A DNA stretch of 64,000 nt from an uncultured Bacilli bacterium (GTDB taxonomy: Bacteria > Bacillota_I > Bacilli_A > RF39 > UBA660), in the NCBI GenBank assembly GCA_947629255.1, contig CANRDF010000001.1, positions 758-64,757 of the forward strand, given 5' to 3'. Of the stretch, positions 27,199 to 64,000 are shown piece by piece. Every line of letters starts with the position of its first letter. Position 1 is the first letter of the stretch. The translations under genes were made by a program, and so were the position numbers. Below the pieces are notes generated by a model. That model saw only the letters and a program-made list of their open reading frames with translations. It was not told the DNA's origin and made no database searches.

Positions 27199-27275
27199 TG
27201 GTAGCGAGGGTGAGGATCGAACTCACGACCCCACGGGTATGAACCGTGTGCTCTAGCCAGCTGAGCTATCTCGCC
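27199..27275 (-). tRNA. tRNA-Met (anticodon CAU), elongator-like
   Basis: Cloverleaf folded by hand. Anticodon arm ACGG-UUCAUAC-CCGU identical to the Bacillus elongator tRNA-Met. Encoded CCA. Confidence 0.8.
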
Positions 27276-31892: not shown

Positions 31893-31969
31893 TGGTGTCT
31901 TGGATGAGATTCGAACTCATGACCTTTAGCTTCGGAGGCTAACGCTCTATCCAACTGAGCTACCAAGAC
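31893..31969 (-). tRNA. tRNA-Arg (anticodon CCG)
   Basis: Cloverleaf folded by hand. Acceptor GUCUUGG/CCAAGAC, anticodon loop CUCCGAA, encoded CCA. Confidence 0.8.
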
Positions 31970-58017: not shown

Positions 58018-58920
58018 TTATAGTGATTTCTTATAAGCGACATCTAATATGTTTTCTTTACGATACTGAATTGATTTTTTTAAATATTCTTTCTTCTTAT
58101 CAGACAAAATAGACATTTCATCAATTAATTTAAATATTGTCTCTAAATGAATTTTAGGTACAATTCGAAGCACAGCTTGATTTAATTCTTCTATATTTTT
58201 CTGATAAAACTGTTTGTACGTTAGTTTTTCTCCTTTATATTTATAAATAGGATGAATATTATAAGCAACATCTTTAAAAAAAGGTTCTTCCTCTAATGCT
58301 CTTTCAATATCACTTTCACTTAATAAAGGATTTAAAGAAGATCCACAGTCATAGACAGGGGCAAAAGAAAGATTATTCTCTTTTAAAAGAAATCCCCAGT
58401 TAGAAAGATGGCGATCTGTATTGCCAATTAATGTATCGACCACAAACATATTCCAAAAACTATCCTTGATTTGAGAGATATTCACTTGAAAGGAACTTGA
58501 TAAACTTTTTAATACATCATAAATATCATTTATATCTGTGGTAAAGTGCCTATCCATATTCGTGATGCTATTTGATAAAGAAGAAAATTCAATTAATTTT
58601 GTTTTTTCATCTGTAAAGTCTTTACAAGCAACCACGTTCTTTTCTTTCCATAAAGATTTAGAATCCATTGGTTCTATATATTTTCCTAGTAAAACCTCTT
58701 GAACATCTATTCCAATTTCTTTAAATATTTTGCATCCTAAGTACTCAGAATCAATATTATTCACATAAGATAAACTTACGTTTTTTTCACGAACAGGGTC
58801 TGGAAATTTTAATAAATAGACTTCTCCCTTATAAAAGATTTTCTTCTTTTTCTCTGAACCACCATAATCACAAAACAATTCTTTAGAATTAGTAAAATCT
58901 ATCATACAATTAACCCCCAA
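58018..58920 (-). CDS. HipA-like serine/threonine kinase domain protein (short, HipT-like size)
   Basis: Catalytic-loop-like NTDRHLSNWGFLL and APVYDCGSS match HipA C-terminal motifs. 300 aa. Confidence 0.55.
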   Translation of the reverse strand: MGVNCMIDFTNSKELFCDYGGSEKKKKIFYKGEVYLLKFPDPVREKNVSLSYVNNIDSEYLGCKIFKEIGIDVQEVLLGKYIEPMDSKSLWKEKNVVACKDFTDEKTKLIEFSSLSNSITNMDRHFTTDINDIYDVLKSLSSSFQVNISQIKDSFWNMFVVDTLIGNTDRHLSNWGFLLKENNLSFAPVYDCGSSLNPLLSESDIERALEEEPFFKDVAYNIHPIYKYKGEKLTYKQFYQKNIEELNQAVLRIVPKIHLETIFKLIDEMSILSDKKKEYLKKSIQYRKENILDVAYKKSL

Positions 58921-59192
58921 AAGAAATTTTTTAATTCTTCATTTTTTGCTGAGGATAGCTCCCCTGTTACTACTTCGGCTTTCATTGAAATACATAAATC
59001 ATAAATGGCTTGTTTCAATTGATAATACAATGCACTATCTTCTTCATTTAATTTATAATCTCTATTTTTTCTTTTTACATTTTCTATATCTTGTTTAATC
59101 CATTTGGAAAGATTGGAATTTAAATATTCTTCTATTTGTTTTTCTTCTTTTTCTAAGCGCATTTTACTCACTTCCTTGCTTGCATTATACAA
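58902..59192 (-). CDS. small protein overlapping the HipA-like gene (candidate partner/antitoxin)
   Basis: 96 aa, charged. 19-nt overlap with the kinase start. Confidence 0.35.
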   Translation of the reverse strand: MYNASKEVSKMRLEKEEKQIEEYLNSNLSKWIKQDIENVKRKNRDYKLNEEDSALYYQLKQAIYDLCISMKAEVVTGELSSAKNEELKNFFWGLIV

Positions 59193-61325: not shown

Positions 61326-61362
61326 AATTAAAAAAGACTGACGCACCATAGTGCTTGTCAGT
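61326..61362 (-). terminator. terminator downstream of the AAA+ ATPase gene
   Basis: ACTGAC-N14-GTCAGT followed by a U-run on the minus strand. Confidence 0.5.
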
Positions 61363-61475
61363 TCTGAACTTCAATAACATTTTATCCTATTTATTATGTT
61401 TTGACAAATATTTTTAGACCACATATTTTAAATCGTCATATTTTTTCATATATTTGAATATTATTTTTTATCAGA

Positions 61476-63347
61476 TTATTTCTTCTCTAATACTCTTTTT
61501 CTTTCTGCAAGTCTTGCTTCTGCGATTAATTCTAATCTTGATTCGTCATCACGAGTCCATAATGTATCAAATATGGCTACAAACTCTGCACCTAGTTTTT
61601 CTATAAAGCTTCTTACTTTCTCCATATTTTCTTCATCAACTTGAGATAGTCCCGTTGTGGTTGCATATCTTGAAGCTGTATTTAGAGATTGGACATATTT
61701 CTCGTTATAGTTTCCACTTAGGACATCTTCTAATGTGATCACTTCTTGATTACAAAACTCTACAAACTCTTTTGTAATATCTTCTCCTACTAAGGCTCTT
61801 AACATTTCTGGATTTTTTGTTTGATATAACATTTTTGATGCCATTTCCCATTTCCTTGGATCTGCATTTGGTTTTTCTCCATCATATTTACTTCTTAAGG
61901 TTTCTCCTTTTTTATAAGCAATGTAAGCATATATCGCTGGATGTATATGATGTTCACTTGCCCATTTTAACCAATTTTCTGTTGTTGTTTTGATATATAC
62001 ATGGGCAAACCGATTAAATAATGGTTCTGCTAATTGATTTGCTGATAAGGAATCTTTCATCTCATTTCCTGCGGCTACAATTCTTGCATTTTCTGGTAAT
62101 TTCCATATCCCATTCACTTCTTTATCTAATATGATATTAAAAGCTATTCCTTGAATACTTGGTAAAGCATTTGTAAGTTCATCAAAGAAAACAATATGGA
62201 GTTTATCGGGTTCTGCTTCACATTTTGCTTCTAATTTTTTTAACCATGTTGGTTTTACATCAATCATTTCTCCTTTTTCAGAATTATAAACACTTTTTCC
62301 ATTTAAGCTGTCTGGTGTTGCATTTCTTAAATAAATAATTGTACTATCAGGATCTATTTGTTTTACTCTTGCACTTTTTCCTTCGCTAGATGGTCCATGT
62401 AAAAATACAGCTACTCCACTTTCAATAGCTCCTTTTATAATATCTTCTTCACTCACTTGTTTAAAATTTAATCCATAAGGATTTCTTCTTTTTTCAATTT
62501 TTATTTGTTCCTCTTTTAAAGACACATTTTGAAATAAATCTTTTACCATATATTTATTTAAATATGTATACATTTCTGTTTTTTTAAAATCACCATTATA
62601 TTTTTTATCAGGTGTATGAAATCTGATTCCACCCAAAATTCCTCTTTTGCATATTAAAGTTTTTGATTTATCATCAATTAACCATCTAACAGGAGAAACT
62701 TCTACCCAAACATGATCTCCATTTTTATATTCTTCCCCGTTTGATAATAGGAAATCAGTTCCCTTATAACTAGTATAATTAGATCTTGCTTGAACTCTAA
62801 TAAATTTGTGTCCTCTGTATTCGTATTCATCATAAATAACAGATTGAAAAGATTGGTGACCATCATCATAATCTGCTGAATCAAAAGTATAATTTCTACC
62901 TGTTTTTTGTATATTGTTATTTTGATATTCTTGTTCTAATAATTTTTGTACTTTAGCCATTGGAACACATTGAGGATATTCTCCAAATTCAACTTCTTCA
63001 CATCCATTATAACCCTTCACTCTGTTTTCAAAAATTGAGTCAAAGATTACAGAGTTTTTTATAACTGGACGAATACAATTAATACGTGACTCTCGAGACA
63101 CAGCGTATCTTTTTCCATTGCTACCCACGCCATAAACATCACCTTCATTATCGGAAGACCGTGTATAATACCGACAAGTACGACATCTATAAGTATCAGT
63201 ATCATTCCAAGCGCCACCCGTTAAAATTACTAAATCTGTGATGAGTGACATAGTTCCATATTTTTTTAAAACATCTAATTGTTTGTCTCCCCAAATTTCT
63301 TCTTCAGAAAGTAAAGTTAATTCTACATCAGAATTCATACAACCCAC
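61476..63347 (-). CDS. AAA+ ATPase (AAA_5/MoxR-like core) with a large N-terminal Cys-rich domain
   Basis: Walker A GPSSEGKS and Walker B HIVFFDELTNA. N-terminal 300 aa contain CRTCRYY. Confidence 0.6.
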   Translation of the reverse strand: MGCMNSDVELTLLSEEEIWGDKQLDVLKKYGTMSLITDLVILTGGAWNDTDTYRCRTCRYYTRSSDNEGDVYGVGSNGKRYAVSRESRINCIRPVIKNSVIFDSIFENRVKGYNGCEEVEFGEYPQCVPMAKVQKLLEQEYQNNNIQKTGRNYTFDSADYDDGHQSFQSVIYDEYEYRGHKFIRVQARSNYTSYKGTDFLLSNGEEYKNGDHVWVEVSPVRWLIDDKSKTLICKRGILGGIRFHTPDKKYNGDFKKTEMYTYLNKYMVKDLFQNVSLKEEQIKIEKRRNPYGLNFKQVSEEDIIKGAIESGVAVFLHGPSSEGKSARVKQIDPDSTIIYLRNATPDSLNGKSVYNSEKGEMIDVKPTWLKKLEAKCEAEPDKLHIVFFDELTNALPSIQGIAFNIILDKEVNGIWKLPENARIVAAGNEMKDSLSANQLAEPLFNRFAHVYIKTTTENWLKWASEHHIHPAIYAYIAYKKGETLRSKYDGEKPNADPRKWEMASKMLYQTKNPEMLRALVGEDITKEFVEFCNQEVITLEDVLSGNYNEKYVQSLNTASRYATTTGLSQVDEENMEKVRSFIEKLGAEFVAIFDTLWTRDDESRLELIAEARLAERKRVLEKK

Positions 63348-63365
63348 CCTTCTATTTTTTTATCA

Positions 63366-64000
63366 TTATTTTTTTCTTTGATATAACATATCATGATTAA
63401 GAGAATATAATTTATCTAATTGTTCTTTATTTATTTGTATTACTTTTCCACCTTTAGGATGAATTTTCCTTACTCCAAAAACAATCCAAATCACATCCAT
63501 AGGAATATCAGGCATATTTGCCCATCCATCGGTAAATATGATCTTATTTTCTACTCTTCTAGTAAATGCTCGAACTGCTACATTAAAGTCAGTTCCTCCT
63601 CCACCTTCAAATTTCATATTTTCAATATCTTCTTCCGTTCTTATTTCATGAAATCCATAAAACTCTGTATCAAAACAACCAACTTTTACTTTTGAATGTT
63701 GTAAGATATTTTTACATTCTCTTAAAAAATTCTTAAGTAATAATTCATCTATTGATCCACTTGTATCTAAGACAATTTCTGTTTCTGGTCTAGGTTGTTC
63801 TTCTAAGTTCGCACTTACAACACCATCTTCAATATACGCATTTTTGTAAGACCAATCAACATCAAATTGAATTGCTTCTCTTAAAACATATCTCCAATCA
63901 ATAATTGGTTTAGATTTTCCTATATCATTTATGATTCTTTGTTCTCTATTCGTAGATGTTCCAGCTTCCATTACTTGCTCTATTAAAACTTGTTTTAATG
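63366..64000 (-). CDS. von Willebrand factor A (vWA) domain protein, N-terminus beyond window
   Basis: MIDAS DTSGS...GGGTD motif. The ORF runs open to the window edge. Confidence 0.6.
   Translation of the reverse strand, partial: LKQVLIEQVMEAGTSTNREQRIINDIGKSKPIIDWRYVLREAIQFDVDWSYKNAYIEDGVVSANLEEQPRPETEIVLDTSGSIDELLLKNFLRECKNILQHSKVKVGCFDTEFYGFHEIRTEEDIENMKFEGGGGTDFNVAVRAFTRRVENKIIFTDGWANMPDIPMDVIWIVFGVRKIHPKGGKVIQINKEQLDKLYSLNHDMLYQRKK

Follow-up and report, generated by a model that had tools for sequence, protein, structure and literature searches.

Several systems that combine a MoxR-class ATPase with a von Willebrand factor A (vWA) protein have been described. In jumbo phages, a MoxR ATPase is paired with a metallopeptidase-vWA protein, and the pair has been proposed to serve as a virion-assembly chaperone (Iyer et al., 2021, PMC7824862). 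In cyanobacteria, gammaproteobacteria and Thiohalocapsa, vWA-MoxR (VMAP) ternary conflict systems are associated with diversity-generating retroelements (DGRs) (Kaur et al., 2020, PMC7159879; Doré et al., 2024, PMC10907252). DGRs also act on tentaclins and other DUF6273 targets of gut phages (PMC10743442, PMC11792537) and on AAA ATPase-C-type-lectin targets in candidate phyla radiation (CPR) bacteria (cited in PMC10907252; the "Midasin/P-loop" targets of Wu et al., 2018, PMC5758913). The phage pair, the DGR-linked MoxR-vWA systems of cyanobacteria, gammaproteobacteria and purple sulfur bacteria, the DUF6273 targets of gut phages and the AAA-lectin targets of CPR bacteria are thus already known. 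Here we describe a related locus at the end of a 64,000-nucleotide stretch of DNA (the window) from an uncultured Bacilli bacterium (contig CANRDF010000001.1), where a vWA gene is followed by a gene for a 623-aa AAA+ ATPase. The searchable literature, which is short of most subscription journals, yielded no paper combining DGRs with DUF2201, the family of the vWA protein, and the present arrangement is undescribed in the papers found on DUF2201, on DUF6273 or on DGRs with MoxR. By that literature, the elements that appear to be new are a variable domain at the N terminus of the MoxR-like ATPase itself, an apparently dead AAA paralogue as third component, hosts that are small-genome, unicellular gut Bacilli and Clostridia, and a parallel route to diversity through arrays of paralogues.

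The window holds the tail of an operon whose recurrent core is an ATPase, a small protein and a vWA protein that also bears a zinc-peptidase domain. Many relatives of this operon carry an active DGR that targets the ATPase's N-terminal domain (N-domain), and the window has a counterpart of their variable repeat (VR) that is static. All genes of interest lie on the minus strand, in DNA of ~30% GC, and the features are as follows.

63366-64000, minus strand: 3′ part of the vWA gene, the last ~210 codons of ~611 aa (Pfam DUF2201, E 3.8e-16).
61476-63347, minus strand: ATPase copy B, comprising the N-domain, a MoxR/AAA_5-like ATPase and a helical C-terminal region (open reading frame, PHROG 1297).
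62478-63347, minus strand: N-domain of the ATPase, aa 1-~290 (cluster matches, AlphaFold model, weak Pfam matches).
63057-63158, minus strand: VR-equivalent, aa 64-97, SSDNEGDVYGVGSNGKRYAVSRESRINCIRPVIK (aligned with the VRs of loci L002, L016, L033 and L045).
63165-63185, minus strand: CRTCRYY, aa 55-61, a motif singled out in an earlier note on this DNA, just 5′ of the VR-equivalent.
62373-62396, minus strand: Walker A, GPSSEGKS, aa 318-325 (read from the sequence; G318 and S320-K324 invariant in alignments A2 and A3).
62178-62195, minus strand: Walker B, IVFFDE, aa 385-390 (read from the sequence; F387, D389 and E390 invariant).
61330-61366, minus strand: terminator-like hairpin with U-run, ~110 nt past the ATPase stop (RNA fold -12.1 kcal/mol, z -2.35).

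The vWA reading frame remains open up to base 64000, and the gene is therefore truncated by the edge of the window. Its open reading frame (ORF) at 63366-63971 scores 59.8 bits against Pfam DUF2201 (VWA-like; cut-off 26.4), and the metal ion-dependent adhesion site (MIDAS) motifs DTSGS, GGGGTD and TDG all fall within the part that is visible. The ATPase gene is complete. It follows the vWA gene after a gap of 18 nt, with a GAAGGG ribosome-binding site before the 623-aa ORF, although the true start is likely to be the ATG at 63338, which gives 620 aa identical to the database protein P0272. The earlier note's description of a MIDAS-bearing vWA gene next to this ATPase is borne out by the DUF2201 score and the motifs.

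The ATPase has every motif by which a MoxR/AAA_5 motor is recognized: Walker A, a Walker B of the form hhhhDE, a sensor-1 asparagine (AAGN, aa 425-428) and an arginine after sensor 1 (R446), all of them invariant in alignments of 13 and 25 sequences. The domain call made earlier, a MoxR/AAA_5-like core, nevertheless proved weaker than claimed. The only Pfam match of the window protein is AAA_5 at 15.1 bits (E 0.024), below the gathering cut-off of 22, and the link to that family is therefore indirect, through PHROG 1297 ("ATPase"), which matches aa 302-595 at E 3.7e-50, and through phage homologues, which pass the cut-off with 25.6 and 24.0 bits. The ATPase of one relative (L061) reaches 18.6 bits across the entire AAA_5 profile. 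More than 2800 homologues of copy B were found, most of them of ~640 aa. Sequence and profile searches of the PDB with the N-domain and with the ATPase gave no meaningful match.

The sequence past base 64000 was reached through a metagenome contig (L001) that is 99.8% identical to the window across 5.3 kb. It reveals the full four-gene operon: after an AT-rich leader that resembles a promoter come ATPase copy A (614-617 aa), a gene of 131 aa, the vWA gene of 611 aa and, last, copy B. Copy A (P0271) and the exact 620-aa sequence of the window (P0272) belong to one 90%-identity cluster and come from a single 68,318-bp NCBI contig, so that both ATPase copies are present in the genome of the window. 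The window ATPase is thus an extra tandem copy placed after the vWA gene, with copy A beyond the window. L001 and a second, independent contig of the window lineage (L089) both start at one particular base, which lies 81 nt upstream of copy A. This coincidence suggests a repeat there that breaks assemblies, such as an insertion sequence, a further gene copy or another element.

To place this layout, one genome per species was surveyed and the ORFs annotated by blast, which gave 76 loci (L006-L081), mostly from uncultured gut Bacilli (many of them rabbit-gut metagenome-assembled genomes) and Clostridia, with a few Muribaculaceae bins. The recurrent order is an ATPase of ~640 aa, a small protein of ~130 aa and a vWA protein. 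The vWA gene was found next to the ATPase in 71 of the 76 loci and the small gene in 59, and 11 have at least two full ATPases. One relative (L007) has the same ATPase-small-vWA-ATPase layout as the window. The order "vWA, then ATPase" given in the earlier note is true of the sequence but is not the register of the operon; it is apparent, since only the operon tail is visible in the window. The note's expectation that the operon continues past the edge was correct. Not every locus follows the common plan. A Clostridia-type sub-clade of ~50%-55% identity (L061, L063, L065-L067, L069, L070, L072-L074, L077, L078, L080 and L081) is without the small gene; in these loci the stop codon of the ATPase gene directly overlaps the beginning of the vWA gene, and the encoded vWA proteins are shorter (369-451 aa) and have little linker.

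The general architecture of a MoxR ATPase with a MIDAS-bearing vWA partner, together with intact Walker A, Walker B and MIDAS motifs, is also that of a housekeeping chaperone for the maturation of metal cofactors or complexes, of the RavA-ViaA, CbbQ-CbbO, NorQ-NorD, CoxD-CoxE or chelatase type. We consider this explanation very improbable here. None of the ATPase, small and vWA proteins matched an NCBIfam model, so that no chelatase, RavA-ViaA, CbbQ/O or NorQ/D signature was seen, and Pfam likewise gave no signature of the named families. No client gene is conserved: the flanks differ in every lineage, with modules of close relatives lying between enolase and FemAB or after gyrase and YlbD, and others next to Fic and LysR or to nfo. 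The distribution is sporadic and the copy number variable. A peptidase domain, a hypervariable N-domain and linkage to DGRs are also at odds with such a role. The genes past the window edge do not make up a housekeeping chelatase or RavA-ViaA operon, and the pair can be kept as the non-housekeeping one that had been proposed.

The third component is read from the small protein. A profile comparison (hhalign) aligned it with aa 301-450 of the ATPase core at a probability of 86% (E 4.8e-6); it has no P-loop/Walker A, and DID replaces the DE of Walker B. We take it, with moderate support, for an ATPase-core paralogue that has no catalytic activity. The full vWA protein (611 aa, in L001) begins with a DUF2201_N domain (124.5 bits, E 7.9e-36), an HExxH peptidase domain, which is followed by a linker and then by DUF2201. 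Both Pfam domains score above their gathering thresholds, DUF2201_N in L001, and the protein is thus a member of the DUF2201_N/DUF2201 family. The zinc-peptidase domain (HEVCHIAFDH) and the Q/S/N/E-rich linker both lie beyond the window. HExxHxxxxH and all MIDAS residues are invariant in 13 vWA homologues, one of them from phage nACB1; DTSGS, GGGGT and TDG are invariant in alignment A7. The linker (L001, 2700-3500) is rich in Q, S, N, E and K, internally repetitive and widely variable in length, with whole proteins of 369 to 761 aa. No component of the operon has a hydrophobic segment, the top Kyte-Doolittle average over 19 residues being 1.0-1.3, and all are therefore predicted to be cytoplasmic.

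The motor and the peptidase-vWA protein have counterparts in N4-like (Schitoviridae) and jumbo phages. The phage ATPase core is homologous to that of the window (PHROG 1297 as above; 25%-30% identity by tblastn), and the phage peptidase-vWA protein is a full-length homologue with the same HExxH and MIDAS residues (BLASTP E 1e-31). In the N4-like Acinetobacter phage nACB1, the order is the same: an ATPase, a small ORF and a DUF2201_N/DUF2201 protein. The nACB1 small ORF was tried as a homologue of the bacterial small protein and rejected, as there is no detectable similarity, and the downstream ORF of PA5oct-type phages is not a vWA homologue. The phage ATPases, of ~370 aa, are without the 290-aa N-terminal domain of the bacterial ones. 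Unlike the phage proteins, the bacterial vWA proteins have a long low-complexity linker, and the bacterial modules lie on the chromosome, frequently in several copies and frequently together with a DGR.

These counterparts raise the possibility that the operon is a chaperone-protease assembly system of phage origin, domesticated or left behind by a cryptic prophage, which would mature or process some particular group of proteins and in which the N-domain is a substrate adaptor only. Both proteins match phage families, the ATPase half PHROG 1297 and the vWA protein PHROG 1314; 709 phage records have a homologue of the ATPase half, nACB1 shares the gene order, and a virion-assembly role has been proposed in jumbo phages (PMC7824862). 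An adjacent NlpC/P60 fragment also weakly matches phage tail lysin families. Set against this, the flanks of the module in L002, L082, L083 and the window are free of phage structural, integrase and replication genes. The N-domain is not covered by any of the phage homologues, none of which reaches 80% of the query. DGR hypermutation and arrays of divergent paralogous adaptors are, moreover, hard to square with a single fixed client. On balance an assembly system of this kind seems unlikely.

The N-domain has a distribution of its own. Searched alone against 1.8 billion representative proteins, it matched 1592 clusters (50% identity) at E ≤ 1e-3. Many of the homologues are stand-alone proteins of 280-330 aa, three (P0120, P0006 and P0115) contain two copies each, and others are fused to DUF4116, leucine-rich repeats or pentapeptide repeats. 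A scan of viral contigs with an N-domain profile gave no confirmed match. DUF6273 and Fib_succ_major are C-type-lectin-like domains that serve as DGR targets, and 4 of 68 N-domain family members matched DUF6273, with a best E value of 2.9e-4. The N-domain is thus a widespread mobile module that appears to be distantly related to DUF6273 and Fib_succ_major. It was modeled by AlphaFold from an alignment of 68 sequences with a pLDDT of 93.7 and a pTM of 0.91. The CRTCRYY motif within it had been put forward as a feature of the domain. In homologues it aligns with GRTGWVY or GRTSWFW, so that its cysteines fall outside the conserved columns; it is a lineage-specific accident, and a zinc or redox motif was rejected on the same ground.

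In relatives, the N-domain is the target of mutagenic retrohoming. Upstream sequence of 1.5 kb or more is available for 55 genome loci, and 15 of these have an RVT_1 reverse transcriptase (RT) of 338-372 aa that ends less than 400 nt before the ATPase start on the same strand. These RTs bear LGNQSSQ and YMDD; GxxxSQ is a recognized signature of DGR-type RTs. A segment of the N-domain is repeated, over 80-100 nt, upstream of the RT as the template repeat (TR), and the VR is at aa ~64-105 of the ATPase. The L002 locus has an Avd-like ORF before its TR (NCBIfam DivGenRetAVD, E 1.9e-5; Pfam bAvd, E 0.01). Mismatches between TR and VR in 13 loci fall almost exclusively on TR adenines (10/10, 12/12, 12/12, 10/10 and 14/14; 11/12 in others). 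Comparison between strains gives the same picture. Four strains have one identical TR and four different VRs, and between L002 and L009 there are 12 differences within the 100-nt VR, against 11 over the 1829 nt outside it. Of 26 columns that vary among five strains, 21 are TR adenines. In L062 (8173-8332), an in-frame TGA has arisen in the VR at a TR adenine (AAATAATCC to AGATGATCC) and splits the ATPase gene in two, which looks like a self-inflicted knockout by mutagenic retrohoming.

The window itself is different. A tblastn search of the 64 kb with the RTs of relatives gave no match better than E 4.7, and blastn found no second copy of the N-domain DNA that could be a TR. Between the window and copy B of L001, none of the eight differences falls in the VR-equivalent, and only one of 23 does so between the window and L028; variation confined to the VR is thus not seen. 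The VR-equivalent ends in AATTGTATTCGTCCAGTT, compared with the GC-rich GGCGCCGTCCGCCCAGC of DGR-linked members, so that the recognition sequence has decayed, and the same 3′ decay is present in both L007 copies. The VR-equivalent is homologous to the DGR variable repeat of the relatives and is static in the lineage of the window. For this lineage, sequence was recovered as far as 81 nt upstream of copy A, and nothing in it hints at a DGR further upstream or in another part of the genome. A possible RT remnant upstream of copy A (KFKMCLL-stop in L001, similar to the C terminus of the L002 RT) was dismissed as chance, since the DNA does not align.

A second route to diversity is seen in tandem paralogues. 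In L007, L008 and L076, the motor halves of the paralogues are 100% identical in DNA, whereas their N-domains are 42%-72% identical. Copies A and B of the window genome differ at 44 residues, 33 of them in the N-domain (11% of it) and six in the ATPase core. Because the differences between paralogues cluster there, the N-domain appears to be under diversification even where a DGR is lacking. With two paralogues, a fixed VR-equivalent and no RT or TR in view, the window lineage would seem to diversify by tandem paralogues only. Larger arrays occur elsewhere. In L021 (2328-16620), where no RT is in view, the array comprises two small-vWA sets and five or more full ATPase genes. L034 (407-9869) has an RT, an ATPase, the small gene and the vWA gene, followed by three more ATPase copies that are 98%-100% identical, four copies in all, with the TR off the locus.

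It could be argued that the module in the window no longer functions and is decaying, a remnant of a locus that a DGR once targeted; the module would have been duplicated through unequal recombination and would not be maintained by selection. Such an origin would fit a 64-kb stretch with no RT or TR, a decayed 3′ recognition sequence in the VR-equivalent, a frameshifted neighboring NlpC/P60 gene and ATPase copies that are nearly identical, as in a recent duplication. However, both ATPase genes, the small gene and the vWA gene are intact with their catalytic motifs in three independent assemblies (window, L001/L089 and L028), the differences between copies A and B are concentrated in the N-domain with the frame intact, and L007, a 72%-identical relative, keeps the same four-gene layout. 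We regard decay of this kind as distinctly unlikely.

The reading that we prefer, to which we give a probability of roughly 0.45, is that the operon encodes a cytoplasmic conflict module in which a sensor-ATPase controls a vWA-protease, here with fixed specificity and two paralogues. It is modeled on the logic that was proposed for DGR-linked MoxR-vWA ternary systems (PMC7159879, PMC10907252). The module is a small, horizontally scattered operon consisting of ATPase copy A, the ~130-aa P-loop-less paralogue, the zinc-peptidase/linker/vWA protein, ATPase copy B and a terminator. The DUF6273-related N-domain would act as the specificity determinant and bind a variable ligand, most likely a protein of a phage or another mobile element. 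A ring of the MoxR-like AAA+ motor, in which the inactive small paralogue might be included, would turn binding into ATP-driven remodeling, and the vWA protein would dock by its MIDAS and bring in the tethered HExxH metallopeptidase, to cut either the bound ligand or a host target. Specificity in the family is diversified by a DGR (Avd-TR-RT directly upstream) and by tandem paralogues with near-identical motors and divergent N-domains. The earlier note's suggestion of a conflict or chaperone system holds in that the vWA-AAA+ pair is not a housekeeping one; the third component, the peptidase domain and the order of the operon had been missed.

A number of points weigh against a sensor-driven conflict module. 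A chaperone-protease role without defense is possible, because homologous pairs occur in N4-like and jumbo phages, where an assembly role has been proposed (PMC7824862). The defense models of PADLOC-DB v2 gave no match to the ATPase, the small protein or the vWA protein. Foldseek searches of PDB and BFVD with the model of the N-domain, a putative C-type-lectin-like domain, also gave no match, and the Pfam links of the domain are weak, Fib_succ_major being matched at E 1.2e-5 in P0120. The AlphaFold model of the full-length ATPase from 25 sequences has a pLDDT of 41 and is unusable. Since the window has no DGR, the argument from a hypervariable sensor holds for it by homology only.

In a wider version of the conflict-module reading, the family would be an undescribed immune-like system of unicellular gut Firmicutes, in which a MoxR motor fused directly to a hypervariable, lectin-like sensor, together with a dead paralogue, licenses a vWA-tethered zinc protease upon recognizing an invader protein. 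Its repertoires would be somatic, made by a DGR, or germ-line, held as arrays of paralogues with swapped N-domains, and the window would represent the germ-line form. We put this forward as a doubtful extension.

Compared with the VMAP ternary systems that occur with DGRs, the present family likewise unites a MoxR-class ATPase, a vWA protein and a peptidase activity in one operon, and it shares a DGR-hypermutated ligand-binding domain on one component, as seen in the relatives. For both, a cytoplasmic location of the components is predicted and a role in sensing has been put forward. In contrast to the present family, where the variable domain is N-terminal on the ATPase, VMAP systems carry a variable C-type-lectin/formylglycine-generating enzyme (FGE) domain that is C-terminal, on the vWA protein or on a separate target. 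Pfam scans of all operon proteins found no VMAP family, the third gene apparently being the inactive AAA paralogue instead. The peptidase is a zincin fused to the vWA protein rather than an effector of the trypsin- or caspase-like type. The family is found in gut Bacilli and Clostridia with small genomes rather than in multicellular bacteria, and the member in the window is without a DGR.

In tentaclins, the variable domain is next to Ig-like domains and the proteins are proposed to lie on the virion surface, whereas here it is next to an AAA+ ATPase with no hint of secretion, and the DUF6273 similarity of the present N-domain is weak (4 of 68 members). The CPR targets, as far as the available descriptions go, resemble the present proteins in that a DGR-diversified binding domain and an AAA-type ATPase are joined in one polypeptide. 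The same descriptions set them apart by the opposite domain order, with the ATPase upstream of a C-terminal VR, by a different RT clade and different hosts, and by the absence of a reported vWA-peptidase partner.

Until now, MoxR-vWA systems diversified by DGRs have been linked with multicellular bacteria, and gut DGRs have for the most part been interpreted as serving phage receptor-binding or surface proteins. In the present family, the domain targeted by DGRs sits on a cytoplasmic AAA+ motor, in gut commensals with small genomes. The simple three-gene core can occur with no DGR, as it does in the window, and phages have it with no sensor domain. This gives a comparable series (the motor alone, with a fixed sensor and with a hypermutable sensor) on which it could be tested whether MoxR-vWA-peptidase modules are ligand-triggered effectors. 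The ATPase in the window should be annotated as the tandem second sensor-ATPase copy of an ATPase/small/vWA-peptidase operon, and the peptidase and HipA-like neighbors should be kept apart from that operon.

The earlier note placed the pair beside those neighbors. They exist, but only near-identical strains (L001) have them next to the module; at all 76 genome loci they are absent. The NlpC/P60, C39-like, 209-aa, 96-aa and HipA-like genes were accordingly rejected as operon members, with the hairpin at 61330-61366 lying between. The hairpin probably marks the end of the operon and parts it from the NlpC/P60 gene; a consensus terminator scan did not report it because its stem is bulged. An Rfam scan of the whole window found two tRNAs only (27202-27275 and 31896-31969, minus strand), far from the ATPase-vWA locus and unrelated to it.

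The NlpC/P60 gene (60611-61130, minus strand) is disrupted. Upstream of a 103-aa ORF, 66 in-frame codons without a start codon encode FDCAGLIWYVY, the part with the catalytic cysteine, and a good ribosome-binding site with an ATG (MKNR-stop) lies one frame off beside an A-run, indicating a frameshift near the 5′ end. L001 aligns without gaps and so has the frameshift as well; a one-off assembly error can therefore be dismissed. The HipA_C-like kinase (300 aa; 58018-59192, minus strand) matches the PADLOC candidate PDC-M03A at E 1.5e-32, and the 96-aa ORF overlaps its start. The two may form a toxin-antitoxin or defense pair beside the housekeeping gene nfo, independent of the ATPase-vWA operon.

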